Of a stretch of 59,924 nucleotides of DNA, positions 14,481-54,639 are shown one piece after another. Under the pieces are notes generated by a model. It was not told the DNA's origin, made no database searches, and was given only the letters and a program-made list of their open reading frames with translations. The stretch's first letter is position 1. Each line of letters begins with the position of its first letter. The position numbers were made by a program, and so were the translations under genes. Source of the DNA: Candidatus Omnitrophota bacterium (GTDB lineage Bacteria; Omnitrophota; Gorgyraeia; JACQQV01); assembly GCA_016206785.1 (NCBI GenBank), contig JACQQV010000005.1, forward strand, positions 1-59,924. Direction: 5' to 3'.

Positions 14481-16226
14481 TCAGAATTCAATGATTCTTT
14501 TTCCTCTTGAAAGGGCTTCAAGGGGGAGTTCAATCTTTCTCTGTGGCGCGATCCGTAAAATAATCTTTCCGTCCACCACCTCTTCCAACACCCCTTCAAA
14601 ATCGGTCTTCCCCAAAAAAGGTTTTTTAAGTACGAGGCGAACCGATTGGCCGATCACTCTCCGAAAATCACGTTCACTCACGAGAGGTCGATCCAAGCCC
14701 GGGGAACAGACTTCCAAAAGATAACTCTCTTCGATCAGGTTTCTTTCATCGAGCAGCTGACCGATCTCCTGATTCAAGAGGGCGCACTCATTCAAAGTGA
14801 TCCCCCCCGGCGTATCTACAAGGAGGCGGAGGACATGCTGCGGACCTTCTCGCCGGTAAGTCATCTCAATCAGTTCCGCCTGTTTCTCTTCAAGGATTCC
14901 GGAAATCGCTTCCCGAAGTGTCAGAAGGAGCGTTGCCGTAGTCCCTTGAGAGGCGATGCCGGTGTTACTTTCCGCATTGGAAGTCCGCAATAAAGCATCT
15001 AATTTTTCAAAGAGTTCTGTGCGAGAGACAGTGAACGTCTTCCCATCGTCCCGCCGCTTCATCTCAATTTTCCCCTCTTTGAGAAAGGTCTCTCCGAGGA
15101 CGACCTGAATCGGAATCCCGATCAGATCCCCGTCTTTGAATTTGATGCCGGGCCGTTCGGGTCGGTCATCCAAAAGGACCTCCCATCCCCGCCGGGTCGC
15201 TTCCTCATAGATTTCCACCGAAAGCCTCACGCAAGATTCCTCTGAAACGAGGGGAAGAATGAGGATTTGAAACGGTGCCACCGACCGCGGCCAAATGACT
15301 CCATTTTCGTCATGGTGCTGCTCAATGATGGAAGCGACGACGCGGTTCACCCCGATGCCGTAACAACCCATGAGCATCGGCCTGCGATTCCCCTCATGAT
15401 CGAGATAGGTGGCACCGAGAGGTTCCGTATATTTTGTCCCGAGCTGAAAGATATGGGCGATCTCGAGGCCCCGCTTCGTCACGCCCTTGTTGTGACATTT
15501 CGGACAGATGGCCGAAGTCTCCTCTCCCAGAGGCCAGGTGGACTGACAGGACTCGCAATATCCGACAACCTCCTCCCCGCTCTCGGTCGGAACCAGAAAT
15601 TCATGGGATCGACTCCCCCCCATGATGCCGGGATCTGCCTCCACGAGAAGTGTTGTGACTCCGCAGCGACTAAAAATTCTTCGGTACGCCCCTAACATCT
15701 TCTCGTAACTTTCTGAGAGGCTTTTCTCGTCCGCATCAAAGCTATAGGCATCCTTCATGATAAATTCACGACTCCGGACGACCCCGAATCGGGGTCGCGC
15801 CTCGTCCCGGAATTTTGTCTGAATCTGGTAAAGCATTAAAGGAAGCTGTCGGTAACTTTTTACCTCTTTCCTCACAAGGTCTGTAATGACCTCTTCGTGG
15901 GTTGGTCCGAGGACGTTCAGTTTTCCATGACGGTCTTTGAAAGAGATCATATCTTCTCCCAAGACCTCAAAACGGCCGGTCGCCTCCCAAAGCTCTGCCG
16001 GCTGAAGCGCTGGAAGAAGTAGTTCCGCCGCCCCCTCACGGTTCATTTCCTCCCGGATGATCGTCTCCACTTTCCGGAGGGCCCGAAGACCGAGCGGCAG
16101 ATAAGAATAGGTCCCTGAGGCGAGTTGACGGATGAGGCCCGAGCGGATCATGAGCCTGTGGCTGACCGCCTCCGTATCGGAAGGGTTTTCTTTCTGCGTC
16201 TGGATAAAACTATTGGACCACTTCAT
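14481..16226 (-). CDS. proS: Proline--tRNA ligase fused in frame to ribosome maturation factor RimP
   Basis: ProRS motifs LGPTHEE, QIQTKFRDE, REFIMKDAYSF, MGCYGIG. The C-terminal ~150 aa show RimP motifs (LRLLVD..GGITLNEC, YLLEVCSPGLDRPL...DF). Confidence 0.92.
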   Translation of the reverse strand: MKWSNSFIQTQKENPSDTEAVSHRLMIRSGLIRQLASGTYSYLPLGLRALRKVETIIREEMNREGAAELLLPALQPAELWEATGRFEVLGEDMISFKDRHGKLNVLGPTHEEVITDLVRKEVKSYRQLPLMLYQIQTKFRDEARPRFGVVRSREFIMKDAYSFDADEKSLSESYEKMLGAYRRIFSRCGVTTLLVEADPGIMGGSRSHEFLVPTESGEEVVGYCESCQSTWPLGEETSAICPKCHNKGVTKRGLEIAHIFQLGTKYTEPLGATYLDHEGNRRPMLMGCYGIGVNRVVASIIEQHHDENGVIWPRSVAPFQILILPLVSEESCVRLSVEIYEEATRRGWEVLLDDRPERPGIKFKDGDLIGIPIQVVLGETFLKEGKIEMKRRDDGKTFTVSRTELFEKLDALLRTSNAESNTGIASQGTTATLLLTLREAISGILEEKQAELIEMTYRREGPQHVLRLLVDTPGGITLNECALLNQEIGQLLDERNLIEESYLLEVCSPGLDRPLVSERDFRRVIGQSVRLVLKKPFLGKTDFEGVLEEVVDGKIILRIAPQRKIELPLEALSRGKRIIEF

Positions 16227-31035: not shown

Positions 31036-31758
31036 TTACATTGTAAATTTCTCGCCAAGGTAAATTTTCCGCGCCTCCGAACTCCTTAACAACTCCTCCG
31101 CGGTTCCAGAAATCAGGATCCGACCGTCCGCCATGAGGTACGAACGGTCGGTGACGGAGAGGGTTTCCCGGACATTGTGGTCTGTGAGAAGTATCCCGAG
31201 GCCTTTTCGTTTCAGTTCATGAATAATCTGCTGGCATTCGGAGACGGCAATCGGATCGACCCCGCTGAAGGGCTCATCCAGAAGAAGGAAAAGAGGATTG
31301 GTGACAAGGGCACGGGTGATTTCAAGCCGCCTCCGTTCCCCGCCGGAAAGCATGTACGCCTTCTGCTTGGCAAGAGGCGTGATATGAAGTTCGGAAAGAA
31401 GTTCACCGAGTCGTCTCTCCCTTGTCTTGGGAGGGATGTGGAGGGTTTCAAGGACCGCCATGATATTCTCCGCTACGGTGAGCCTTTGAAAAATAGACGG
31501 TTCCTGCGAGAGGTATCCGATGCCACACCGGGCCCGACGGTACATCGGTAAAGAGGTGATGTCCTGTTGGTCAAAGATGATCTCTCCGCTGTTCGGCAAC
31601 ACAAGCCCCATGATCATATAAAAGGTGGTCGTTTTCCCTGCCCCGTTCGGTCCCAAAAGGCCGACAATCTCTCCGCGCTTGACCGTAATGGCCACATCCC
31701 TCACCACCGGCCGGCCGTTATACGATTTAACGAGGTGCCTGGTCTCTAATAAATGCAC
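31036..31758 (-). CDS. lptB: LPS export ABC ATPase
   Basis: GPNGAGKTT, LSGGERRRLEI, DEPFSGVDP, TDHNVRETL. Confidence 0.97.
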   Translation of the reverse strand: MHLLETRHLVKSYNGRPVVRDVAITVKRGEIVGLLGPNGAGKTTTFYMIMGLVLPNSGEIIFDQQDITSLPMYRRARCGIGYLSQEPSIFQRLTVAENIMAVLETLHIPPKTRERRLGELLSELHITPLAKQKAYMLSGGERRRLEITRALVTNPLFLLLDEPFSGVDPIAVSECQQIIHELKRKGLGILLTDHNVRETLSVTDRSYLMADGRILISGTAEELLRSSEARKIYLGEKFTM

Positions 31759-32620
31759 GTTTTTCTTTTTCCTCCGGCTTGATCAAAAGTTTTGGTTTGC
31801 CGACAAGGGTCACTTTCCCGAGCAGGGCATTATAGATCGCCTTGTCGCTATAGGAGACATTGTCTCCCCGTGTGATCCGGACATTCCCGGTTGCGATGAG
31901 TTCTTTCACATGATTCGTTTCCGGCTCAAAGGTGATATCCATCCGATCCGCCAGAAGTTCCCCTTCTTTGTCGATCGCTCTGACTTCGTCGTGGAAGACA
32001 GCGATATTGTGGGTATAATCGAGTTCCATCGGGCCTCTGGAGGTAATTTGAATGTCGGGCGCCATATGGACCTTGACCTCTTCCTTGAGGGCCACCTTTT
32101 TCAGATCGGGATAAGCCTCTGCGCCTTTTCCTTCCGTCATTAGAGTTCCTCTTTCGATCGTGAGCCTGTCTTCCGTCGAAAGTTTTTTCGAAGACCCGTT
32201 CCAATCGAGCGAATCCGTTTTGAGAGTGGCCCCATCGCTCGTCTGTGCAAACACATTCTCTTCAAGGTGCGCCTGTGCCGTGTGGCGGTCATAGGTGCCC
32301 CGTTCGGAGGTCACCGTCATCGTCGTCTTCCCTTCCATGGCAAGTTTCGGCTTTTCAAGTCTGGCAAGATCCCCTTCCAATGAAGCCTTCGTCCCCTGAA
32401 CCTCCCACTCCCGTTTTCCCTCCCTGGAGTATCCTGTAAATGAAAAGGTGTGGACCTCTTGTTCTGGAATGGTTTCCTCCGCAAAAGCCATCTGTCGAGT
32501 CGACAATGACAAATGACAAAGCACAAAATTCAAAATAAATCCAAAGCACAAATACCAAATGACAAAACCCCGTTTTGGAATTTGAATTTTGAATTTATTT
32601 TGTGCTTTGAATTTTGTCAT
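31727..32620 (-). CDS. lptC: LptC/LptA-like two-domain LPS transport protein
   Basis: N-terminal hydrophobic anchor; LptC-like LKTDSLDW and LptA-like ATGNVRI..SDKAIY; directly upstream of lptB. Confidence 0.8.
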   Translation of the reverse strand: MTKFKAQNKFKIQIPKRGFVIWYLCFGFILNFVLCHLSLSTRQMAFAEETIPEQEVHTFSFTGYSREGKREWEVQGTKASLEGDLARLEKPKLAMEGKTTMTVTSERGTYDRHTAQAHLEENVFAQTSDGATLKTDSLDWNGSSKKLSTEDRLTIERGTLMTEGKGAEAYPDLKKVALKEEVKVHMAPDIQITSRGPMELDYTHNIAVFHDEVRAIDKEGELLADRMDITFEPETNHVKELIATGNVRITRGDNVSYSDKAIYNALLGKVTLVGKPKLLIKPEEKEKRAFIRDQAPR

Positions 32621-32627: not shown

Positions 32628-33524
32628 TACCTTCTCGGGCCTCGTCTTCCACCGACGATGCATCCAGACCCATTGATCTGGAAACCGACGGATATACGAT
32701 TCTGTGACGGACATCCACCGTTCTGTAAGGCGATTCACCGCCTCTTCTTTATCCGATCCATTGGCCGGCCAGAGGGGTTCTTCGACGACGAGCCGATGCC
32801 TTCCATTTCCTTCCCGGATCATGAAACAAGGAATAACAGGTGCCCCTGAGGCAATGGCAAAACGGGCAGGGGCAACCGGGGTGTACGCCTCCTTCCCAAA
32901 AAAAGGAACAAAAATACCGTCGACAGAGTCAATATCCTGATCGGCGAGAATCCCGAGGAATTGATTTTGGTGAAGAATCCGAAGCATCTGTTTCGGAGAC
33001 TCATCGCGGTAAAGGTACTTCAGCCCTTCGCTTTGACGGATTTCGCTCAAGAGACGGTCAAACCGTTCATCGTAGACCTTCCGGATGACAATGATCCCTT
33101 GATATCCCTTGAGGGATAAGGCTCGGGCGAGAAGCTCCCAGTTCCCAAAATGGGCGACCAAGAGGACGCCCCCTTTCCCGCTTTGAAGGACTGTATCCAG
33201 TTTCGAAAGTCCCTCGAAGGAGACCCATCGGTTTAGCGTCTTTTGAGTGATTTTTGGAAAATAGATAAGTTCCGCAACCGTTTTTCCTAAATTTTGGAAG
33301 ACCGATTCCCCGACTTTAAAAATTTCGTGTGGCGTTTTTTCCTTGCCAAAAGCAAGCGTCAGGTGCTGAACGGTCTTCCGTCTTTCTTTCCCAAGAACCC
33401 AGAAAGCACTCCTCCCCAGGAAAGCACCAAGCGCGATGCCCCACGAAGAGGGCAGTTTCCTCAAGAGAAAGCGGATAAAAAGGGTCAGGCGATAAAGGAT
33501 TTTCCTCCGAAGGCGATTTTTCAT
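32595..33524 (-). CDS. Lipid A late acyltransferase (LpxL/HtrB family)
   Basis: AHFGNWE, ADQD, FFG, PDQWVWMHRRWK. Confidence 0.92.
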   Translation of the reverse strand: MKNRLRRKILYRLTLFIRFLLRKLPSSWGIALGAFLGRSAFWVLGKERRKTVQHLTLAFGKEKTPHEIFKVGESVFQNLGKTVAELIYFPKITQKTLNRWVSFEGLSKLDTVLQSGKGGVLLVAHFGNWELLARALSLKGYQGIIVIRKVYDERFDRLLSEIRQSEGLKYLYRDESPKQMLRILHQNQFLGILADQDIDSVDGIFVPFFGKEAYTPVAPARFAIASGAPVIPCFMIREGNGRHRLVVEEPLWPANGSDKEEAVNRLTERWMSVTESYIRRFPDQWVWMHRRWKTRPEKVMTNDKIQSTK

Positions 33525-33547
33525 GAACAATTATCCCCAAACTTATT

Positions 33548-33577
33548 ATTCTACAATATGTTATGCGGGATTGTCAA
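33548..33577 (-). promoter_or_regulatory. Sigma70-type promoter for the lpxL-lpt-tig genes
   Basis: TTGACA (33577-33572), 18-bp spacer, TAGAAT (33553-33548). Confidence 0.65.
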
Positions 33578-33647
33578 GAAAATTTGGAGGGATTGGGATG
33601 ACTAAGATTGAAAAAGGAAAAAATTGGATAATCGAATGACTTTACTC

Positions 33648-34757
33648 TTAAAAATCCAGACAAACAGCCGCAGCCTCAGCTAGCGCATCCGCATCATTAT
33701 CTGCTCTTGCGCAAACTCTCCAATTACGAACGTTAGATATCACAGTCTGCTCGACCCAACAATAACCTGAATCATTATCGATATGATACATCCTGCAGTA
33801 ACTAAGAGCGCAAAAATCATGTGGTTGGTAACCGGTGCAGATCACGTTATGAGTAATAGGGACGCCCATGCCTGATATGGTAGAGTTTAACCGAGGAATT
33901 CCCACATTTCCAAAACCATCCATGCGTATCCCTCCCGCAGGCACACTATTAATCCATGGAGCGATGACGAAATTAGAAGTGTTACTATTTCCATCTGTCT
34001 GGTTGCTGTAAATGATCCCCATATCTCCCGCTTGAGTTATTTGGTTCCATTGTAAATTAGCTGTTAAGCCAGAAACAAATCCCATCCAATTCACCCCCGG
34101 GGCCGGATTTCCATTTGTCATATACATGGTAGGGGCTGCTCCATTACTCGCCATCACATGAAACTTAGCGGTTGGGTTAGCAGTCCCAACTCCGACATTG
34201 CCGGTATTATTAACAACAAAATCATCCGCACCGACCGCAGACATACCAATACTGAAGAACCCCTGATCATCAACTCGGCTTAAACGTAAAGTGTTACCGA
34301 TAATTGGCCCGTCAGTCGTGTAAAATTTGTATGCTCGTGTACCTCCTGTTGAACCTTGAAGACGAAGCAAATCTGAAGAACCAAGAATGTCCAACTTCGC
34401 CCCCGGACTCGGCGTCCCGATACCGACATTCCAGGTGGCATCATTCGGATAGAGGTTAGGCGCGCTCAGCGTCCAGTGATTACTCCCCCCTGCCGCACCT
34501 CCCACAATGTCCCAGGTGAAGGTTGCTCCATTACAGAGAAGGAGCTGATTGGTTCCGCTATCATAGTACGTGAGACCGCTGCGGGTGGCATCACAAATGC
34601 CCGGGCTTGTTGTGGGAACGAATCTCACATTCTGATACTCCCCGAAAGGAGCGGGATAATAGGTCGTTAAGGTAATCTGTTCCTGGGCAATGGCAACAAG
34701 GCTACAGGTGAGAAGCAAAAGGAGAAGAAGGAAAAAGATTCTTTTATCGGAGTTCAT
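33648..34757 (-). CDS. Secreted fibre/adhesin-like protein A (TYYPAP N-terminus, GNVGIG repeats, Cys-rich tip)
   Basis: Signal peptide, EQITLTTYYPAPFGEY, three NVG(I/V) repeats, C-terminal Cys-rich domain; RBS AAGGGAGG. Confidence 0.8.
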   Translation of the reverse strand: MNSDKRIFFLLLLLLLTCSLVAIAQEQITLTTYYPAPFGEYQNVRFVPTTSPGICDATRSGLTYYDSGTNQLLLCNGATFTWDIVGGAAGGSNHWTLSAPNLYPNDATWNVGIGTPSPGAKLDILGSSDLLRLQGSTGGTRAYKFYTTDGPIIGNTLRLSRVDDQGFFSIGMSAVGADDFVVNNTGNVGVGTANPTAKFHVMASNGAAPTMYMTNGNPAPGVNWMGFVSGLTANLQWNQITQAGDMGIIYSNQTDGNSNTSNFVIAPWINSVPAGGIRMDGFGNVGIPRLNSTISGMGVPITHNVICTGYQPHDFCALSYCRMYHIDNDSGYCWVEQTVISNVRNWRVCARADNDADALAEAAAVCLDF

Positions 34758-34773
34758 GGCGTGCGCCTCCCTT
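34627..34773. repeat. 147-bp direct repeat, copy 1 (RBS plus 5' end of gene A)
   Basis: Identical to 35805-35951 except 34695 A versus 35873 G. Confidence 0.95.
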
Positions 34774-34810
34774 CAATGAGACAATGACTTTAAGTTTTTA
34801 TACTATTGAT

Positions 34811-35935
34811 TTAGAGACAGATACAATGCTCGCCTGATCCCCACATAGACAAACAACCGCCGATATTAAAATTGCCGCTGGCATCTTCGGAAAAAAGACA
34901 TCCTCTACCGATCTGTGCACAGCGAGTTGCACAAGGCGTACCGTTAGGGGACCAAACATATACTAAAGCATTTCCATAGTCTGTGTTCGCGGCATTGTAA
35001 AATCGAATATTCCACCCTCGATACGCTCCGCTACCCATCATTCCAATATCACCGCCTTGTACCATAATAGAAAGAGGATCAGAAGGTACAGGGGGGTTGC
35101 TAAAACCACTTTGTTGCGCAAATAGCATAGGAGTGGTTAAAGCGCCTCCAATAGTGAGCCTCGCAGACGGTTTTATTCCCCCTATACCAATACCCACATA
35201 TCCATCCCCATAGACCACAAATTGATCGATGCCGGCGTTGTTCACGGCAAGGGCCTTGGTGTTCGCTCTATTCGCAGTACTTAAGATACCGTAATTCCAG
35301 TCGGTGGCATAAGGAGCATTCACGTTAAGTTTCACATTGCCGGGGGAAGAAGTTCCGATCCCGACATTGCCGTTTACACCGGATATTGTTGGACCAGATG
35401 ATCCTAGCTTGATATGCCCTTGAGTAGCATCTGGGATCCCGTAAAGACCCATTGTGTTGGCTATATCAATATCCACCAACTTTGTATCGTTACCGACAAT
35501 TAAAGCATCCCCAGAGAAAGTATCGGATTTAACCAGCGCTGTACCAGCAACATTAAGTTTGTATACAGGATCCGTCGTTCCAATCCCCACATTCGAGCTT
35601 AAAGTTGTGGGATAGAGGTTACTTCCCGACAGTGTCCAGAGACTACTCCCGCCCCCTCCACCCCCCCCTCCCAAAACAGCCCAGGTGCTACTTCCCCCGT
35701 TACAATAAAGGATTTCGTTGGTGGTAGAGTTGTAGAACATAAGACCCGTTTGGGTCGCCGTACAAGACGTTCCTGAGGTTGCTCCTGTGGTTGGGACAAG
35801 TCTTACATTCTGATACTCCCCGAAAGGAGCGGGATAATAGGTCGTTAAGGTAATCTGTTCCTGGGCAATGGCGACAAGGCTACAGGTGAGAAGCAAAAGG
35901 AGAAGAAGGAAAAAGATTCTTTTATCGGAGTTCAT
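34811..35935 (-). CDS. Secreted fibre/adhesin-like protein B, paralogue of A
   Basis: Same first 45 aa as A; NVGIGT repeats; a different Cys-rich tip. Confidence 0.8.
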   Translation of the reverse strand: MNSDKRIFFLLLLLLLTCSLVAIAQEQITLTTYYPAPFGEYQNVRLVPTTGATSGTSCTATQTGLMFYNSTTNEILYCNGGSSTWAVLGGGGGGGGSSLWTLSGSNLYPTTLSSNVGIGTTDPVYKLNVAGTALVKSDTFSGDALIVGNDTKLVDIDIANTMGLYGIPDATQGHIKLGSSGPTISGVNGNVGIGTSSPGNVKLNVNAPYATDWNYGILSTANRANTKALAVNNAGIDQFVVYGDGYVGIGIGGIKPSARLTIGGALTTPMLFAQQSGFSNPPVPSDPLSIMVQGGDIGMMGSGAYRGWNIRFYNAANTDYGNALVYVWSPNGTPCATRCAQIGRGCLFSEDASGNFNIGGCLSMWGSGEHCICL

Positions 35936-35951
35936 GGCGTGCGCCTCCCTT
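35805..35951. repeat. 147-bp direct repeat, copy 2
   Basis: Offset 1178 bp from copy 1, with one mismatch. Confidence 0.95.
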
Positions 35952-36007
35952 TTTTATGGCTTCATTGACAAGTATACCATATGGAAAACGGGGGGACGTT
36001 TAAAAAC

Positions 36008-36056
36008 AAAAAGGTTGTGCAAAGGGTGAATTGGCACTTTGCACAACCGTTTTTTT
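36008..36056. terminator. Bidirectional terminator-like hairpin after kdsC
   Basis: GGTTGTGCAAAG (36013-24) / CTTTGCACAACC (36037-48), flanked by A and T runs. Confidence 0.75.
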
Positions 36057-36588
36057 ACCGGTGATTGGTGTACTCGGCGACGAGGGCGTCGTACTTCTCC
36101 TGACTCTTCAAAATGAGATCTACCACCTCCCGGACCGCCCCCCGCCCCCCTTTGCGCTGGGTGACATAGCCGCTTCGCGTACGCACCTCCTCGACGGCGT
36201 TCGGGACACTGACCGGGAGCCCTGCCTCCACAAGGATCGGGAGATCCAAAAGGTCATCCCCGATAAAGCAGACCTCCTCGTCGGTCACACGAAACTTTCG
36301 CTTCACCTTTTGGTAGACTTTCCATTTGTCCAATGCATTTTGGTAGACCTTGGACACATGGCTGTCGCGCGCCCGTCGCTGGACGACCGGTGATTTTTTG
36401 GCGGTGATGATGACCGTCTTGATACCGGCCTTTGAAAGAAGATAGATCCCGAAACCATCTTGAACGTCAAAACATTTGAGTTCATCCCCTGCATCGCCGT
36501 AGATGATCCGTCCGTCGGTTAAGACCCCGTCGACATCGAGGATGAGTAGCTTCACCTTTTGGGCGCGTTCTCTGATAGCTGAGTCCAT
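36055..36588 (-). CDS. kdsC: KDO 8-phosphate phosphatase
   Basis: DVDGVLTDG, FDVQDG, IGDDLLD, GGRGAVRE. Confidence 0.96.
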   Translation of the reverse strand: MDSAIRERAQKVKLLILDVDGVLTDGRIIYGDAGDELKCFDVQDGFGIYLLSKAGIKTVIITAKKSPVVQRRARDSHVSKVYQNALDKWKVYQKVKRKFRVTDEEVCFIGDDLLDLPILVEAGLPVSVPNAVEEVRTRSGYVTQRKGGRGAVREVVDLILKSQEKYDALVAEYTNHR

Positions 36589-36672: not shown

Positions 36673-37998
36673 TTAACTTTCTCGGGTGACACGGAGCACC
36701 TCCTCGATGGTCGTAACACCGGCCCTCGCCTTGTCCAAACCGTCATCCCGAAGGGTGCGCATCCCTCCTCGTAGCGCGGCCGCATTGATCGCGTCCGTCG
36801 CACTCTTGGCAACAATGAGATTCCGGATCTCATCGTTCATTTCCATCAGTTCAAAGATCCCGATCCGGCCCCGGTAGCCGATCTGACGACAGGTCGCACA
36901 CCCTTTCCCCCGGTAAAAAGGAGCACTTTGTGGAACCTCTTTTTTACTTTCCACTTCTTTCTCTGGCTCCATGATATAGAATTCTCCTTTCCGTTCCGGG
37001 CTCCATTTCCCCCGTTTCTCCGAAGGCGTGGGCGGGGCAAATTCCTGAAGGACCGCCTCGGGAGGGGCGTAGTCTATTTTACAACCGTTGCAAATCTTTC
37101 GAACGAGCCGTTGGGCCAAGACGCCGATGAGCGATGAAGAAATAAGGAAAGGTTCGATGCCCATATCGACGAGGCGGGTCACCGCCCCTGCGGCATCATT
37201 GGTATGAAGGGTGCTAAAAACAAGATGACCGGTGAGAGAAGCGCGGATGGCGATCTCCGCCGTTTCAAGATCACGAATTTCCCCGACGAGAATAATGTTG
37301 GGATCCTGCCGCAGGACGGAGCGAAGGCCATTGGCAAAGGTGAGTCCTACTTTTGGGTTGACCTGCCCTTGATTCACCCCTTTCAACTGATATTCCACCG
37401 GATCCTCCAGGGTAATGATATTCAGTTGCGGAGAATTAAGAATGGAGAGGACCGCATAAAGGGTGGAGGTCTTGCCACTATTCGTAGGACCTGTCACAAA
37501 GATCATCCCATTCGGCCGTTTGATGAGTGTCTCAAATTTCGATTGAACAGCCTCCGAAAGGCCCAGTTCGTTCAGGGTCCGGAAGGTGACCTCCTTATCC
37601 AGGATGCGGACGGCAATCTTTTCCCCCAAGATCGTCGGGAAAGTAGAAACACGGACATCCACATCCCGCGTCCCGGCCCGGAGACCGAACCGCCCATCCT
37701 GAGGGGTGTGGGTCCTGCCGACATCTGGATCAAGTTCTGCCATCACCTTGATGCGGGGAATAATCGGAAGGGCGTCCCTTCGAAGGGTGAGCATGTCATA
37801 GAGAATGCCGTCGATCCGATAACGGACACGGAGGGAGTCTTTGGTCGGTTCGATATGGACGTCGCTTGCCCTTTCCTCGATCGCCTGCGCCAGGATCAAA
37901 TCGACCACCTGAATCACAAGAGGATTGTCCAGACTGGCCCCCTTGGCACCACTCGTAAAAACGAGTTCATCGTATTTCTCTTTAAGTGTCTTGATCAT
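36673..37998 (-). CDS. GspE/PilB-family secretion ATPase lacking the long N-terminal domain
   Basis: ASDVHIEP, PQDGR, GPTNSGKT, LEDPVE, LRQDP..VGEIRD, TGHLVFSTLHTND, CxxC...CxxC. Confidence 0.93.
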   Translation of the reverse strand: MIKTLKEKYDELVFTSGAKGASLDNPLVIQVVDLILAQAIEERASDVHIEPTKDSLRVRYRIDGILYDMLTLRRDALPIIPRIKVMAELDPDVGRTHTPQDGRFGLRAGTRDVDVRVSTFPTILGEKIAVRILDKEVTFRTLNELGLSEAVQSKFETLIKRPNGMIFVTGPTNSGKTSTLYAVLSILNSPQLNIITLEDPVEYQLKGVNQGQVNPKVGLTFANGLRSVLRQDPNIILVGEIRDLETAEIAIRASLTGHLVFSTLHTNDAAGAVTRLVDMGIEPFLISSSLIGVLAQRLVRKICNGCKIDYAPPEAVLQEFAPPTPSEKRGKWSPERKGEFYIMEPEKEVESKKEVPQSAPFYRGKGCATCRQIGYRGRIGIFELMEMNDEIRNLIVAKSATDAINAAALRGGMRTLRDDGLDKARAGVTTIEEVLRVTRES

Positions 37999-46078: not shown

Positions 46079-47069
46079 CTAAAACATCCTCGACTTGGAT
46101 CGCCTTCATGCAGATATTGTCCGGACAATGCACATAATAACAGGGGGGATCGTCATTGCAGCCGACCTCCTTTCGGAGAATCACTTGCGGATGCGTTCCT
46201 GAAGGACCTGTCAGACGCGGATGCGTCGGTCCAAAAAGAGCGATCACCTTTGTCCCCTGACTCTGAGCCACATGCATCGCCCCGGTATCCCCCGAGATGA
46301 CAAGCGTGGCGCGTTTGAGGAGAGCGGCCAATTGTTTAAGAGTCGTCTCGCCGCAAAAGAGGACCGCCCTCTCCCGCATGGAAGAGAGGATCTCCTCTCC
46401 CAAAGGAATATCTTTCTTTTCCCCTGTAATTACGATCTTCTGGTGGTGCTTCCGGATCAACTGATCGGCCAACGCGGCAAACCGCTCGGGGGGCCAACGT
46501 TTCTGATCCCAATTTCCGGCGGGACAGAGGGCGATAAAACGTTCCCCCTGCTTAAGCCCCTTCTCTTGGAGGCGTCGTGCAAGGCGTTTTTCCTCTTCCT
46601 CCCCGATCTGCAATGTATAATTTCGGCTGACGGTCCGGTTCTCCGGGGGGAGAAGTCCCAAGAAATACTCCACCTTATGAAGCGGAGAGGGCGGCAGGGG
46701 AACTTTCTGGGTGAGAAGTAACCCTCCCCATTTGACCGCATAGCCGATCCGTTCCGGAATCCCTGCCAAAACGGTGAGGAGTCTTCGCGTGAAGGAACGA
46801 TGAAGAAGATAGACTTTGTCAAATCGTTTGGCACGAAGGGTTCGAATCAATCGGAGTTTCCCGAAAAAGGAGCGATGGAGGGATTCCTCTTCATAAAGAA
46901 GAATTTCGTCGAGGTGGGGATTTCCTTCCAAGACCTCCCGGCAACGGGGGACCACCAGACAGGCGATGAAACTGTCAGGGAAATGGGCGCGGAGCGCTTC
47001 CAGAAAAGGGGTCGAGAAAAGAACGTCCCCGACCCAATTCACATTCACGACAAGAATCTTTTTCTTCAA
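46059..47069 (-). CDS. waaF: LPS heptosyltransferase II-like (GT9)
   Basis: NWVGDV, KRWPPERFA, GDTGAMH, LFGPT. Confidence 0.8.
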   Translation of the reverse strand: MKKKILVVNVNWVGDVLFSTPFLEALRAHFPDSFIACLVVPRCREVLEGNPHLDEILLYEEESLHRSFFGKLRLIRTLRAKRFDKVYLLHRSFTRRLLTVLAGIPERIGYAVKWGGLLLTQKVPLPPSPLHKVEYFLGLLPPENRTVSRNYTLQIGEEEEKRLARRLQEKGLKQGERFIALCPAGNWDQKRWPPERFAALADQLIRKHHQKIVITGEKKDIPLGEEILSSMRERAVLFCGETTLKQLAALLKRATLVISGDTGAMHVAQSQGTKVIALFGPTHPRLTGPSGTHPQVILRKEVGCNDDPPCYYVHCPDNICMKAIQVEDVLDAIERG

Positions 47070-49174
47070 CGCAGGACCTCTTCATAAGGCGTTTGCACCC
47101 ACCGTTTGACCTCTTGATACACCTCTTGAGGTGTAATCCGAGTCATGCAAATGAGACCGATGGGACAACGTCGGAGGTAACAGGGATGGCATTTCACCTT
47201 TTTGTTCAACACGATCCCTTTTCCAACCGGCGGAAAATGACGTTTCGGATCGGTCGGTCCAAAAAGGGCGATCACAGGGGTATCCATGCTTGCCGCCAAA
47301 TGCAAAGGAGCACTATCCACCGTCACAAAGGCGCGGCAGCGTCGAATCAAGGAAGCGAGTTGAGGCAGTGTGGTCTTTCCAATCGCCACAATCGGTTTCA
47401 CATGCACCTGAGAAAGGAGTTTCTGGGCAAGGTTTCTTTCTTGCTCCGTTCCTGTCAGGACAACCCTGATTTTATCCTGCCCCAGACGGTCGCAGAGTTC
47501 GGCAATATATTCGACAGGCCACCGTTTCGTCTCCCATCGGATGCTTCCTCCCAGATTCACGCCGACGAGGGATTCGTTTCCAGCCAACCACTCCTGTTGC
47601 AAGAGCGTTCCCACATACGCTTCGTCCTTGGGTTGGGGCCAGAGTTCCAGCCGTGGGTCAACGGTTTCGATCCCCAGAAGACGAAGGAGTTTCCCCTGAT
47701 GTTCCACAGGAGGCAGGGATCCCGGATCCTTGAGTTTCCTATTGACGAGAAAACGGAAAAGGCCCCGGTCAAACCCGAACCGTTTCGGGGCAAGGGAAAG
47801 ATAAGAAAGAAGCTGGCTTGTTTTGTTATTCTGAAGGTCGATCACCTGATCAAATCCGCGCCGGCGTAGTTCAGAGGCGAGTTGGAGACGGCGGCTTCCC
47901 CTTTTATCCTTCCGTTTGGAATCATAGACCACGATGTCATCCAAATAGGGAGAATGTTGCACGAGTTCAAAGGCATCCCGGCCGACAAGAAGGGTGATAT
48001 GGGATTTTACAAATTTCTTCCGGATCGCACGGAGACTCGGGACGGCCAACACAACATCTCCCACCGCACCGAGTTTGACAACCAAGATACGATCCTTTTT
48101 GAGGGCCTCCTCATAGACCATGAGGGTCTTGTCAATCATCCCTCCGAGAGAATACTCCTTTTCCACTTTCTCCCGAAGGCGTTTTGCAAACGCTGAGGCG
48201 AGAGACGGATCCTTGAGGATCCGAAGGATCGCTTCGGCAAGGGCCAGCGGATCTTCCGGCGGAACAAGGAGTCCTTCTTTCCCGTCTGTAACGACATCGA
48301 CGACGCCGCCGACCCGCGTGGCGACCACCGGCACGCCGCATGCGCCTGCTTCGATCATGACGCGACCAAAGGCCTCCGGCGTTTTGGAAGCGAGGACCAA
48401 AAGATCCATCTCCGAAAGAATCTTTGGAATGTCATAAGAGGTCCCTGCCCATTGAACGGTCTGGTGAAGTCCCAGCCGCTTCACCAAAAGTTCCAGTTCT
48501 TGTCGGTACTTTGTTTTTCCCGGCGGCGCATCTCCTACGATGAGTACCTTTATTTTTGGAAAGGCTCGCACCACCCTGGAAATGGCACGGATAAAATCGA
48601 GGTGGCCTTTCAGAGGGGTGATCCTTCCGATCATGCCGATGGTAAACTCCCCCTGAGGATTCCGGCGGGGACTCCGATAGGTGAAGACGTCGAGGTCCAC
48701 CCCCCGCGGAATGAGACGAATGCGTTCTGGAGAGACCTCGAAATCTTCGAGCATATGTCTGCCGATCGCCTGGCTCGAAACGATCACCCGCTTCCCCCAT
48801 CCCATGCAGTAACCGAAGAAATTCTTCCGATAGTATCCATGACAGGTCGTGACAAGGGGACGCGATGTTTTGCGACAGGCGAGGAATGCAATGAGTCCCG
48901 GCACGCGGCTTCGGGCATGAACCACATCGATATGCTCTTCCTCAATAATGCGACAGACCCGCCGCACCATCTGAAAGATTGTCCAGGGATTTTTGGCGCC
49001 GACCGGAAGGGTGTAATGTTTGGTGCCATACGTGTCCAGGTAACGGACCAGTTCCCCGCCTCCCGAGATGACCACCGAGCGGTGCCCGCGCGCCACAAGG
49101 CCCCGCGCGAGTTCCACCGTCCCCCGCTCCGTCCCTCCCAATTTCAGTTCCGGAATGATTTGAAGAATGTTCAT
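47066..49174 (-). CDS. Fused GT4 plus GT9 glycosyltransferase
   Basis: GGTERG...EAFGRVMIEA (GT4), followed by GAVGDV...DSAPLH...FGPT (GT9). Confidence 0.9.
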   Translation of the reverse strand: MNILQIIPELKLGGTERGTVELARGLVARGHRSVVISGGGELVRYLDTYGTKHYTLPVGAKNPWTIFQMVRRVCRIIEEEHIDVVHARSRVPGLIAFLACRKTSRPLVTTCHGYYRKNFFGYCMGWGKRVIVSSQAIGRHMLEDFEVSPERIRLIPRGVDLDVFTYRSPRRNPQGEFTIGMIGRITPLKGHLDFIRAISRVVRAFPKIKVLIVGDAPPGKTKYRQELELLVKRLGLHQTVQWAGTSYDIPKILSEMDLLVLASKTPEAFGRVMIEAGACGVPVVATRVGGVVDVVTDGKEGLLVPPEDPLALAEAILRILKDPSLASAFAKRLREKVEKEYSLGGMIDKTLMVYEEALKKDRILVVKLGAVGDVVLAVPSLRAIRKKFVKSHITLLVGRDAFELVQHSPYLDDIVVYDSKRKDKRGSRRLQLASELRRRGFDQVIDLQNNKTSQLLSYLSLAPKRFGFDRGLFRFLVNRKLKDPGSLPPVEHQGKLLRLLGIETVDPRLELWPQPKDEAYVGTLLQQEWLAGNESLVGVNLGGSIRWETKRWPVEYIAELCDRLGQDKIRVVLTGTEQERNLAQKLLSQVHVKPIVAIGKTTLPQLASLIRRCRAFVTVDSAPLHLAASMDTPVIALFGPTDPKRHFPPVGKGIVLNKKVKCHPCYLRRCPIGLICMTRITPQEVYQEVKRWVQTPYEEVLR

Positions 49175-49546: not shown

Positions 49547-51496
49547 TCACACGATCCTCCTTAAGGCCTCTTCAATCCGCTTCGCATCATCGAGTCTGGA
49601 CCGAGGCCCTTTTGCTTCAAACGCTTTTTGAATCGCCCCTCCGAGGTTTTCTCCCTCCGTCAAAATCGCCTGATGTTCCTTGGCCAGTTGTGAGAGGGTC
49701 TGTTCGATCTTCGACCCCTTCTTCCTACCCGAAGGGAGAAAAACGATCAGCCGGTCCGCGGCAGATGCAGCCTCGGAAACCATCGAGATGCTTTCACCTG
49801 TTACAATCACAACATTCGAAAGCCCCAGAATACCAGGGACCACGCCGTCAAAATTCATCCGGTTCGCAAGGACAAGGAGCTTGCAATGGGGATCGTTCTT
49901 CCAGGATTTCTCCAACATCTCTTCGATCTCCTTGGAAGTCCTGCGGGAGGAACTCACGAGAAGTTCAAGATTTCGCTTTTTTGCCTCCTGAGTCACCGTT
50001 TCGATCATTAAGGTGAATTCTTCCTGGCGGAATGGAAATTCCTCCGTGCTTCCTCCGATGAGGAGCCCCAGACAACGCGTAAGCGGCCCTCCGATCCGTT
50101 GCGCAAGACGGGATGCCTCCTGCCGAATCTTTTCCTCTGTCAGGGCATGAGGGGCGCCACGTGTGGCCACAATCTGGGAAGAGAGAGGAGGCTTGTCATG
50201 ATGCGGAATGACCGCAAGGTCGAAGGAAGAAGCGGGGGGAAAGACCGGATCCATGACCACAATGGAGCGCGCAGGATGATCATAAGAAAGAATCCGATTG
50301 AGGGGCGCTACGCTGGATCCCGTCGATATCACGAAATCGTGATGGGACCGAATGACCTTTTCATAAGAATCCTTTGTGAGTGCAAACCGGACACACTTTA
50401 GACACCCCTGGCAGGAGCGATTCGCCTGGAGACTCAAGGCGGCAAGAAACATCCTCCGCCACTTGTTTTTGTAACGGATCCCGATGGGTTCCTCATGCAC
50501 AACGTGCAACCCTTTTTCTTGAAGCACATGCTGAAGAGAGGAAGCCACCCCCAAAGATTGATTCAGGTGGCCTGCCTTACCATCATTCAAGATCGCCACA
50601 TGCCGGGTCGGACTCGACTTCCATCTTTTGTGAAGCCAGAGCCACTGATCCGGATATTTCCGGATAAAATTTTCAAGACGCTCGGCAAATTGCTGGAGTC
50701 CTTGCTTAAGATCCTCTTCTTCGTTGCCACTTTTTGTAATGTTGAGCGGTTCTGTGATCTCAATCACGTGATGGGCATGCCGTTCTCGTCGGGCGAAGCA
50801 GGGGATAACCTCGCAGCCCGTTTTCAAGGCAAAAGCGATCGCCCCAGGAGCAAAAGAGGTCGGGCGGCCAAAGAAATTGACAAAAACCCCATTCCTTCCC
50901 GCATCCTGATCGGTGAGGATGCCGACAAGTCCATTCTCTCGAAGAGCTCGTATGATTTCGCGGATCATTAAGCCTTTGTGGATGACTTTGCAGCCGGTCA
51001 GTTCTCGATACCGGTTAAGGAGAGCATTTGTCTTCGGAAACTTTTGTTGGCGGGCGAGGACCTGTTCCGGATATCCCCGGATCGCCGCGCCAACACTTTG
51101 AAGCTCCCAGTTCCCAAAATGGGCGGTAAGGGCAATCGTCCCTTTTCCTCTTTCTTTGGCTTTTGCCAATCGGTCCATCCCATGAAACGTGACGTAGCGG
51201 GAAAGATACCCTTCGTTCACCTTTGGAAATCGGAGCACTTCGACGGCGGTTTGCATGAGATTCTGAAAAACCTTCCGTTCAAGGCGAAGGAGTTGGGAAG
51301 GAAAATATTTTCCTCCGAGACATGATTTCAGATTCGCATAAGCGATCTCCCCGCGCTTTCGATAAAACAAAAAAGCAATATCCCCCACCCTCCGGCCGAT
51401 CCACAGGCACAGGGAAAGCGGGAGAAGGCAGAGGAGTGCTGAAAGTCCCCTAGCGAGAAAATAGAGCGTTGAGTCGCCGAAAGAGTTCGTCTTCAT
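49547..51496 (-). CDS. Lipid A acyltransferase (LpxL-like) fused to an ELM1/GtrOC1-like glycosyltransferase domain
   Basis: AHFGNWE...QWLWLHKRWK, followed by DGKAGHLNQ, SSRRT, VTGESISMVSEA. Confidence 0.87.
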   Translation of the reverse strand: MKTNSFGDSTLYFLARGLSALLCLLPLSLCLWIGRRVGDIAFLFYRKRGEIAYANLKSCLGGKYFPSQLLRLERKVFQNLMQTAVEVLRFPKVNEGYLSRYVTFHGMDRLAKAKERGKGTIALTAHFGNWELQSVGAAIRGYPEQVLARQQKFPKTNALLNRYRELTGCKVIHKGLMIREIIRALRENGLVGILTDQDAGRNGVFVNFFGRPTSFAPGAIAFALKTGCEVIPCFARRERHAHHVIEITEPLNITKSGNEEEDLKQGLQQFAERLENFIRKYPDQWLWLHKRWKSSPTRHVAILNDGKAGHLNQSLGVASSLQHVLQEKGLHVVHEEPIGIRYKNKWRRMFLAALSLQANRSCQGCLKCVRFALTKDSYEKVIRSHHDFVISTGSSVAPLNRILSYDHPARSIVVMDPVFPPASSFDLAVIPHHDKPPLSSQIVATRGAPHALTEEKIRQEASRLAQRIGGPLTRCLGLLIGGSTEEFPFRQEEFTLMIETVTQEAKKRNLELLVSSSRRTSKEIEEMLEKSWKNDPHCKLLVLANRMNFDGVVPGILGLSNVVIVTGESISMVSEAASAADRLIVFLPSGRKKGSKIEQTLSQLAKEHQAILTEGENLGGAIQKAFEAKGPRSRLDDAKRIEEALRRIV

Positions 51497-53766: not shown

Positions 53767-54639
53767 TCAGGCCCTCGGATGCGCTTTTTCATACACCTTT
53801 TTCAGGCGCTCGGCCGTCACATGCGTATAGATCTGAGTCGTCGAAAGGTGTTGATGTCCGAGAAGTTCCTGAACGGATCGTAAGTCGGCTCCCCGATCCA
53901 AAAGATGGGTTGCGAAGGAATGCCGAAGGGTATGAGGAGAGATGTGACGGGCAAGACTTGTCCTTTTGATCACACGATCCAAGACCCTTCGAACGCTCCG
54001 CTGGCTGAGTCGACCGCCTGACTTATTGAGAAAAAGGATTTGGGAGGAACGAAGTGATCTTTTCTCTTTCCGTTTCTCCAGATAGGTCTGGATCGCACGC
54101 AACGCCTTCTCCCCGATCGGACTGAGCCTTTCCTTCTTTCCTTTTCCAGAGACCTTAACCACCCCTCCGATAAAATCGACATCGGAAAGATCGAGCTGTG
54201 TCAGTTCACTCACGCGAAGCCCGGAACTATAAAGCGTTTCGAGGATCGCCCCGTCCCTCAACCCTTGAAGATCCCCTGCAGGTTCCTCGAGGAGTCGCGT
54301 CACCTCTTCGACCCCCAAAACCTTGGGAAGCCGTTTCTCCTGTTTGGGGGTACGCAGAGAAAGGGTAGGGTTTGTGTGGAGATATCCTTCTCGACAGAGG
54401 AATTTGAAAAAGGAACGGAGTGTAGAGAGCTTCCGTGCCACCGTGATTTTTTGAAAATTCTTGGTTTTAAGATCGGCGAGAACTCTTCGAAGGACTAAAA
54501 GATCAATTTTTTCAGGAGGGATGTCACCAACAAATTCCTGAAAGGCCTCAAGGTCACTGCGGTAATTCGTCAGGGTGTGGGAGGAAGCATTCTTTTCGTA
54601 CTCCAGGTAACGGAGGAACTTCTCGATATAGCGTTTCAC
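53767..54639 (-). CDS. xerC: Tyrosine recombinase XerC
   Basis: GLRVSEL, GKGKKER, HTLRHSFATH, LLGH..LSTTQIYTH; dprA-topA-xerC synteny. Confidence 0.9.
   Translation of the reverse strand: MKRYIEKFLRYLEYEKNASSHTLTNYRSDLEAFQEFVGDIPPEKIDLLVLRRVLADLKTKNFQKITVARKLSTLRSFFKFLCREGYLHTNPTLSLRTPKQEKRLPKVLGVEEVTRLLEEPAGDLQGLRDGAILETLYSSGLRVSELTQLDLSDVDFIGGVVKVSGKGKKERLSPIGEKALRAIQTYLEKRKEKRSLRSSQILFLNKSGGRLSQRSVRRVLDRVIKRTSLARHISPHTLRHSFATHLLDRGADLRSVQELLGHQHLSTTQIYTHVTAERLKKVYEKAHPRA

Follow-up and report, generated by a model that had tools for sequence, protein, structure and literature searches.

Two tandem genes on the minus strand of a 59,924-nucleotide (nt) stretch of DNA from an uncultured groundwater bacterium of Candidatus Omnitrophota (assembly GCA_016206785.1, contig JACQQV010000005.1; the whole stretch is referred to as the window) were found to encode small fiber-like proteins with signal peptides. 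The upstream gene, geneB, and the downstream gene, geneA, share a nearly constant 5' end and carry tips that could not be aligned with each other. With a probability of roughly 70%, they are read as tandem paralogs of the mosaic adhesive trimer (MAT) type whose 5' ends have recombined and which occupy a hot spot for fiber genes downstream of kdsC. Omnitrophota are uncultured, mostly ultra-small bacteria that are thought to be predators or parasites.

Both precursors begin with MNSDKRIFFLLLLLLLTCSLVAIA followed by QEQ, an N terminus that was read by eye as a signal peptide, with a basic n-region ahead of a hydrophobic core and an AxA site. The conserved N-terminal peptide of the mature proteins, ITLTTYYPAPFGEY, is followed by a neck, a stalk, and a tip (Table 1). 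The motifs listed in a preliminary description, made from the sequence alone (C..GL..Y...N..L.CNG..W, poly-Gly, WTLS..NLYP, and NVGIGT), were all located. Each protein has one Cys at position 18, within the signal peptide, two in the neck, and six within the last 45 to 65 residues. The two proteins are 50% identical (110/218; E 4e-47), with the similarity restricted to residues 1 to 203 of geneA and 1 to 207 of geneB. Their C-terminal halves gave no mutual alignment, and the unrelated modules and Cys-rich C termini described earlier were recovered as unalignable tips with six Cys each. In a word-indexed search, which requires shared 5-mers and could miss distant relatives of the tips, residues 205 to 369 of geneA matched only P0073, encoded on metagenome contig L102, with no match past about residue 320, and residues 207 to 374 of geneB matched nothing. 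The last 75 to 80 residues of each tip likewise had no relatives in a local phmmer search of about 850 sequences.

The proposed kinship to tail-fiber-like trimeric adhesins was supported by both sequence and structure comparison. When a profile of 69 family members was compared with PDB, the best match was 8ond (Bd2133; E 5.8e-14, profile positions 107 to 242), and further matches were 8oml (2.2e-7) and 8on4 (5.4e-6), both Bd1334, 8ojn (Bd3182; 8.6e-6), and 8ol4 (Bd2439; 1.3e-5). Below E 0.01, MAT fibers were the sole protein group of solved structures matched by the profile; the PDB chains of Bdellovibrio MATs are C-terminal fragments. The Foldseek comparison suggested in the preliminary description also returned 8ond as the top PDB match of the geneA AlphaFold2 (AF2) model (E 2.5e-3). 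In a VIA search, four MAT fibers ranked 1 to 4 of 48,161 chains, with Z values of 5.6 to 4.5 over model residues 133 to 212; these modest values are taken only as agreeing with the sequence result. In both AF2 models the neck was confident, at a predicted local distance difference test score (pLDDT) of 85 to 95, and showed short beta strands, which lie at residues 63 to 66, 71 to 76, and 81 to 87 in geneA. Taken together, the family probably belongs to the MAT superfamily or is close kin to it, in which case geneA and geneB would be new, small members of the MAT-type fibers that lack an S74 tip. From this homology, we infer that the stalk probably trimerizes.

The 5' ends of the two genes carry the clearest footprint of recombination. 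A repeat search gave a direct repeat of 166 nt at 96% identity (positions 34608 to 34773 and 35786 to 35951), and within it DNA alignment and a script confirmed the earlier count of 146/147 identical nt across the ribosome-binding site (RBS), signal peptide, and head block. Ahead of each ATG, 16 nt match without exception, among them the RBS AAGGGAGG, and coding identity runs to nt 131 (codon 44) with a lone mismatch at nt 63. Dense mismatches start at coding nt 132, and the upstream sequences diverge beyond position -16. By the Nei-Gojobori method, the first 45 codons have 0.07 synonymous substitutions per synonymous site (dS) and no nonsynonymous substitutions (dN 0), compared with a dS of 1.80 and a dN of 0.45 over the next 80 aligned codons of the neck and a dS of 1.46 in the stalk. 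At the proportion of synonymous differences seen in the neck (pS 0.68), the probability that about 30 synonymous sites would show no more than one such difference is 8e-14, which rules out coincidence. Because synonymous sites and the 5' untranslated region are both identical, selection at the protein level is insufficient as a cause, and the jump in dS from 0.07 to about 1.8 past the block indicates recent gene conversion or recombination. The 147-nt identity is therefore the product of recombination within the head, as had been proposed for the homogenized 5' end. The direct repeats could in turn drive gain or loss of a gene copy, which fits the single gene found in the related genomes G001 and G002 and on L102. 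Selection on an RNA element was also considered as a source of this identity and was rejected, since shuffled sequences fold better than the 174-nt 5' region itself (z +2.38).

Recombination was also detected between lineages, in the stalk. Residues 184 to 283 of geneA correspond to residues 219 to 318 of P0073, which is encoded at the same locus on L102, with 75 to 100% identity at the protein level, 85 to 95% at the DNA level, and 80 to 95% at third positions. In contrast, kdsC, lpxL, lptB, tig, and the ATPase gene (gspE) are only 65 to 77% identical between the window and L102 at the DNA level and 41 to 50% at third positions. Elsewhere in the two fiber genes, the heads are about 50% identical, and no similarity could be recognized between the necks or between the tips. 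With an identity far above that of the flanking genes, the module of about 300 nt has moved between lineages long after their divergence, in keeping with the modularity proposed earlier. The evidence of recombination thus covers events both within the genome (the 147-nt block) and between lineages (the stalk module). A second stalk module, residues 143 to 198 of geneB (approximately positions 35342 to 35509; GDALIVGNDTKLVDIDIANTMGLYG...GHIKLGSSGPTISG), has copies of 55 to 76% identity in P0011, P0015, P0019, P0021, P0027, and P0030. These carriers lack the TTYYP head, so stalk modules are common to several fiber families.

Around the pair, genes for lipid A, lipopolysaccharide (LPS) core, and Lpt functions are clustered over about 22 kb. 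Read along the minus strand, its nearest surroundings are kdsA-kdsD-T2SSE ATPase-kdsC-geneB-geneA-lpxL-lptC/A-lptB-tig. Related loci were compared at the same position. In G001, of the same family, the T2SSE ATPase gene and kdsC are followed by one head-family gene of 313 amino acids (aa), and in G002, also of that family, by one that is cut off by the contig end and has at least 576 aa. The order on L102 is T2SSE ATPase-kdsC-P0073 (402 aa)-small secreted open reading frame (ORF)-lpxL-lptC/A-lptB-tig. The fiber gene after kdsC differs among all four family-level loci examined; in this family, the position behind kdsC has thus long and consistently housed a fiber gene, with content that varies per genome. 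The preliminary description held that the pair interrupts the synteny of kdsC and lpxL; the insertion between them was seen, but it is not new, as all four loci carry a fiber gene there. In G004, from another family, the order is kdsD-kdsC-lptC/A-lptB-tig with neither fiber gene nor ATPase at that place, and a triple array of short head-family genes lies 6 kb further. The contig of G001 (C6) ends about 550 nt past its fiber gene and that of G002 (C64) within it, which may reflect repeats or strain variation.

Since an assembly artifact had been named as a possible refutation of the tandem repeat, the region from 33400 to 36200 was compared with Logan contigs of four groundwater runs, all belonging to one study; in such contigs, rare and copy-number variants are invisible. 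Run X1 yielded a 147-nt contig corresponding exactly to 34627 to 34773 at a depth of 56.6, with flanks at 33.9 and 31.4. This depth, about twice that of the flanks, is expected of a collapsed two-copy repeat. Another X1 contig (34744 to 35834) links the RBS region of geneA, the unique intergenic spacer, and the body of geneB, and an X2 contig (34781 to 34959) crosses the same junction of the geneB end with the spacer. The tandem arrangement and the two repeat copies are thus supported by metagenome contigs, and the assembly is sound. The comparison called for earlier, made here at the level of contigs, upheld the copy number of the repeat. The long contigs had no alternative letters in either tip, which indicates that the four runs sample a single population, and the result does not bear on differences of the tips between strains. 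Three observations from these contigs are recorded separately. One X3 contig has A for G at 35873, which makes both heads identical; the change falls within the repeat and only 69 nt away from a contig end, and the contig is possibly chimeric. A contig joint from 34430 to 35574 (side of 20 nt, depth up to 90 versus about 33 for the genome) falls within an NVGIGT-coding stretch, and I read it as derived from the fiber genes of other organisms rather than from a hybrid gene. Depth peaks of up to 510, versus about 33, were found at 34340 to 34433 and 35562 to 35749, again NVGIGT-coding stretches, which means that many co-sampled organisms carry near-identical short motif DNA.

The head defines a large family. 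A word-indexed search gave 72 relatives, the named ones mostly from Omnitrophota, and many of these combine the same N terminus with different C-terminal Pfam domains. An exhaustive search with a cutoff of E ≤ 1e-3 returned 10,025 cluster representatives; among the 150 matches listed, short proteins align to residues 1 to 130, and giants of 1,000 to 6,600 aa carry the NVGIGT unit of geneA, about 100 aa long, 5 to 31 times. The motif (E/Q)x(I/L)T(L/I)TTYYP(A/S)PxGxY directly follows unrelated signal peptides in 89 of 212 stored proteins, and the TTYYP head was found in none of the 101 stored proteins of at least 650 aa. In the 69-member alignment, no variation occurs at Y33, Y34, P35, P37, G39, or G61, and conservation reaches at least 90% at C55, C75, W95, and the GIG of the first stalk repeat; part of the family members lack the neck. 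C-terminal Pfam domains in these 69 proteins were Peptidase_S74 (15), YadA_head (3), UspA1_rep (2), Peptidase_G2 (2), and LbR_Ice_bind (1), with none in the rest. Peptidase_S74 (PF13884) was absent from the source genome by profile search.

Across species-representative genomes, the motif pattern occurred in at least 620 stretches, of which 522 encode relatives. By their titles, the 76 loci kept were from Omnitrophota/Omnitrophica (53), Planctomycetota/Planctomycetia/Planctomycetales (22), and Deltaproteobacteria (1), and 13 of them contain tandem arrays of two or three family ORFs. Neighbors at these loci are housekeeping genes, with pyrB-like genes in 13, glmS in 9, and pyr, arg, and rsmI also present. 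A 128-aa query of head and neck matched in 14 of 41 relatives and in 33 of 151 genomes across the phylum, both counts including the source genome, and matching genomes hold 1 to 8 head-family matches each. MAT-like fibers are thus common in Omnitrophota and can be found by a simple N-terminal signature. The triple array in G004 (L024, contig C3, 9354 to 11527) encodes proteins of 307, 188, and 219 aa that have the TYYP head, lack the two-Cys neck, and share a C-terminal ...YLCCK; it looks like a distinct mini-fiber subfamily.

In the working model, Sec exports each precursor, and cleavage follows AIA. The constant peptide of about 20 aa (ITLTTYYPAPFGEY) and the putatively disulfide-bonded, beta-rich neck may then form a base that holds the fiber on the surface of its own cell, and a common base would let both fibers use one anchor. 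A Gly hinge would lead into the beta stalk of NVGIGT repeats, trimeric by homology, and the gene-specific six-Cys tip of about 75 aa may bind a ligand on some other cell or a surface. In this model, the two copies acquired their 147-nt identity by gene conversion or unequal recombination with each other in the recent past, with the site downstream of kdsC acting as a long-standing recombination hot spot. A broader reading, which is speculative and rather doubtful, would make TTYYPxPxGxY at the mature N terminus a plug-in docking signal, in wide use among Omnitrophota, for interchangeable fibers on one common outer-surface anchor, with recombination re-tooling host or prey recognition. If it held, fibers from 190-aa mini-fibers to 650-aa S74 fibers would share that anchor; the LPS core is a candidate for it, because the kds-lpx-lpt cluster encloses the fiber locus in this family; and recombination in the head and at stalk-module boundaries would work at a fixed hot spot. 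The small Cys-rich tips are candidate host-recognition proteins that could be used as probes, and the pair offers a natural example of the genetic separation of the constant and variable ends of a fiber.

Partner recognition in Omnitrophota has been discussed around Tad/type IV pili and giant ORFs (PMC10066038). MATs were defined in Bdellovibrio by a signal peptide, a directly following conserved beta-rich N-domain of about 130 aa, a repeat fiber, and a variable tip; B. bacteriovorus has 21, of which 13 have S74 tips and 8 do not, and the fibers are displayed on the predator surface, with the N-domain proposed to bind an element of that surface (Caulton et al. 2024, PMC10769870). The window proteins share the signal peptide, repeat fiber, and variable tip of this layout, with a conserved, beta-rich head and neck in the place of the N-domain, as well as a homologous stalk (E 5.8e-14), a family split into S74 and non-S74 members, and module swapping. 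They differ in their small six-Cys tips without detectable relatives and in a constant part formed by a TTYYPxPxGxY peptide of about 20 aa and a two-Cys neck of about 45 aa, a possible homolog of the Bdellovibrio N-domain. MATs in Omnitrophota are already in print: Supplementary Table S3 of the same paper names one Omnitrophica protein (713 aa, with an S74-like tip) as a MAT (PMC10769870). The accessible part of that supplement makes no mention of YYP, recombination, or gene conversion, and a literature search found no main text treating Omnitrophota together with mosaic adhesive trimers. The new elements are the TTYYP head signature, the hot-spot locus in the LPS cluster, and the DNA evidence of recombination.

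Other fiber systems show partial likeness. Phage tail fibers and tailspikes with Peptidase_S74 (PF13884) have beta-fiber repeats of the NVGIGT type, and 15 of the 69 family members end in S74, but the window proteins lack S74, carry Sec signal peptides, and are encoded among housekeeping genes. Trimeric autotransporter adhesins (YadA/UspA1) share the concept of a modular surface fiber, with YadA_head in 3/69 and UspA1_rep in 2/69 family members. Unlike them, the window proteins have short Cys-rich C termini, no C-terminal beta-barrel anchor detectable with Pfam at E ≤ 1, and a conserved end that is N-terminal. Giant repeat proteins of Omnitrophota and other uncultured bacteria, for which a role in the adhesion of host-dependent nanobacteria has been proposed (Seymour et al. 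2023, PMC10066038), contain the geneA stalk unit in many copies, whereas the window proteins are small and have the TTYYP head.

Several observations weigh against the reading of the pair as recombined MAT-type fibers at a hot spot. Confidence in the AF2 monomer models is low (mean pLDDT 62.0 and 64.5, with stalk and tips mostly below 50), and weak monomer models lead to low Z values in structure matches; low stalk pLDDT would also be expected of an obligate oligomer and was not counted as evidence. Pfam (E ≤ 1) and NCBIfam searches gave zero matches for either protein. Among 642 ORFs clustered from the 76 loci (±6 kb), no export, anchoring, or chaperone partner was found. Signal-peptide DNA identity is mostly 30 to 65% in 22 other tandem family pairs, and the signal peptide is unconserved between genomes too; a homogenized 5' end occurs in only one of these pairs (L041: signal peptide 87/93, motif 45/45, neck 171/200), and one L028 tandem pair is intermediate. 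Tips are invariant in the long contigs of the four groundwater runs. At 369 and 374 aa, the proteins are far shorter than typical Bdellovibrio MATs of about 1000 aa, and two genes per genome compare with 21 in B. bacteriovorus. A genome-wide search for more copies of the head, as proposed in the preliminary description, found no family genes beyond this pair in the source genome (1.6 Mb, 50 contigs, 95% complete); of the adhesin repertoire it envisaged, the modular build stood, but the genome holds only two such genes.

The 5' identity might instead be the footprint of gene arrival, in which an incoming gene or 3' segment recombined within the head, or a tandem duplication was followed by 3' replacement. 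This history, viewed as possible but somewhat unlikely, is favored by the sharp bounds of the identity block at -16 and +131, by related loci with one gene where the source genome carries two, by the clear exchange of a stalk module between lineages, and by the unhomogenized state of most tandem arrays, which argues that ongoing conversion is no general property of the family. The necks, however, are homologous yet synonymously saturated (dS 1.8), which fits old paralogs with a short converted tract equally. On present data arrival and conversion cannot be separated, and both amount to recombination within the head. A different question is whether the fibers adhere at all; surface coat or spacer fibers, or proteins that bind or degrade carbohydrate, with polymers or the envelope of their own cell as the target, would suit a locus within the lipid A/LPS core/Lpt cluster that is conserved in four loci, and would suit short fibers, only two per genome, whose tips have no known binding fold. 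Such a role is considered unlikely, as the closest characterized relatives are prey-handling adhesins, adhesin-type modules (YadA_head and UspA1_rep) occur in family members, and fast turnover and exchange of distal modules are typical of recognition proteins.

A prophage or tailocin tail-fiber remnant was suggested by weak PHROG matches of the tail-fiber type (phrog_9942 at 6.3e-5 and phrog_18345 at 3.6e-4) and by weak protein-atlas leads to viral clusters (scores 0.89 to 0.91). It is very improbable in view of the Sec signal peptides on both proteins, a position kept in three genera and one metagenome contig, and related loci among pyr, arg, and glmS housekeeping genes; moreover, the 47 neighboring ORFs scanned contain no phage structural or lysis genes and instead serve LPS, translation, and amino-acid synthesis. 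An assembly artifact, such as two strain alleles placed in series, could be imagined for a metagenome-assembled genome of 50 contigs with both sister-genome contigs ending at or near the locus, but it is hardly credible: past -16 the two copies have different upstream sequences, the separately assembled X1 and X2 contigs cross the junction (X1 may be the source sample of the window), and the collapsed repeat contig has a depth of 56.6 versus 33.9 and 31.4 for its flanks.

Table 1. Positions of the fiber genes, their protein regions, and nearby signals in the window
Feature	Positions	Strand	Remark
geneB (P0001), upstream fiber gene, 374 aa	34811..35935	minus	ORF list; family profile E 7e-68
geneA (P0002), downstream fiber gene, 369 aa	33648..34757	minus	ORF list; family profile E 9.7e-72
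Constant block copy A (RBS, signal peptide, head motif), 147 nt	34627..34773	minus	
Constant block copy B, 147 nt	35805..35951	minus	Sole difference from copy A at 35873
geneA signal peptide, aa 1-24	34686..34757	minus	Cleavage between AIA and QEQ; sequence reading; AF2 helix 3-22
geneB signal peptide, aa 1-24	35864..35935	minus	Sequence reading; AF2 helix 4-20
geneA head peptide, aa 25-45	34623..34685	minus	QEQITLTTYYPAPFGEYQNVR; invariant Y33, Y34, P35, P37, G39 (n=69)
geneB head peptide, aa 25-45	35801..35863	minus	
geneA neck, aa 46-90	34488..34622	minus	Cys 55 and 75; Gly hinge GGAAGGS at end
geneB neck, aa 46-96	35648..35800	minus	Cys 58 and 78; hinge GGGGGGGGSS
geneA stalk, aa 91-290	33888..34487	minus	NVGIGT-type repeats at aa 109, 186, 283
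geneA module, aa 184-283	33909..34208	minus	Recently common with P0073 (L102, same locus)
geneB stalk, aa 97-300	35036..35647	minus	NVGIGT repeats at aa 114, 189
geneA tip, aa 291-369	33651..33887	minus	6 Cys
geneB tip, aa 301-374	34814..35035	minus	6 Cys
Terminator-like hairpin (20-nt arms, 90% complementary, 12-nt loop) and T-run, after kdsC	36005..36056	minus	
Possible extended -10, TGgTATACT, ahead of geneB	35971..35979	minus	Read by eye; scan did not report site
Promoter-like TTGACA-18-TAGAAT, 11/12, after geneA, ahead of lpxL	33548..33577	minus	

The terminator and promoter that had been described as bounding the pair are both present, but from their placement after kdsC and before lpxL they belong to those two genes; the automatic scan overlooked the hairpin because of its 12-nt loop. 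All Pfam-matched genes of the window are on the minus strand. The order of the surrounding cluster is waaA, lpxK, lpxL-Elm1, glycosyl- and heptosyltransferases, an hldE-like kinase, kdsB, pyrG, kdsA, kdsD, the T2SSE-family ATPase, kdsC, the pair, lpxL, lptC/A, and lptB, followed by tig. The lone T2SSE-family (GspE/PilB-like) ATPase (36676 to 37998, minus strand; E 4.6e-125) lies between kdsD and kdsC, and likewise in G001, G002, and L102; no further type II secretion or pilus genes were found beside it in the window. An integrase-family ORF 18 kb away (53770 to 54639) was read as XerC/D-like. A small secreted ORF (...ADTVTLRDGR[IV]LHG...) follows the fiber gene in G001 (L007, 194 to 514; 106 aa) and on L102 (3198 to 3548; 116 aa); it is missing from the window, where geneA occupies that position.

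Several unusual gene joins were also noted, all on the minus strand in the window. Apparent fusions are Lip_A_acyltrans with Elm1 (49550 to 51496), a GT4 with a GT9 heptosyltransferase (47069 to 49174), ThiS with topoisomerase I (54642 to 56852), and RimP domains with the core of a class II tRNA synthetase (14484 to 16226), although ORF calls use the earliest start and some of these may be merged neighboring genes. A single 297-aa ORF (31730 to 32620) comprises LptC and an LptA/OstA-like domain, and on L102 (3606 to 5348) an lpxL-like acyltransferase and the LptC/A ORF are fused in one frame of 580 aa.

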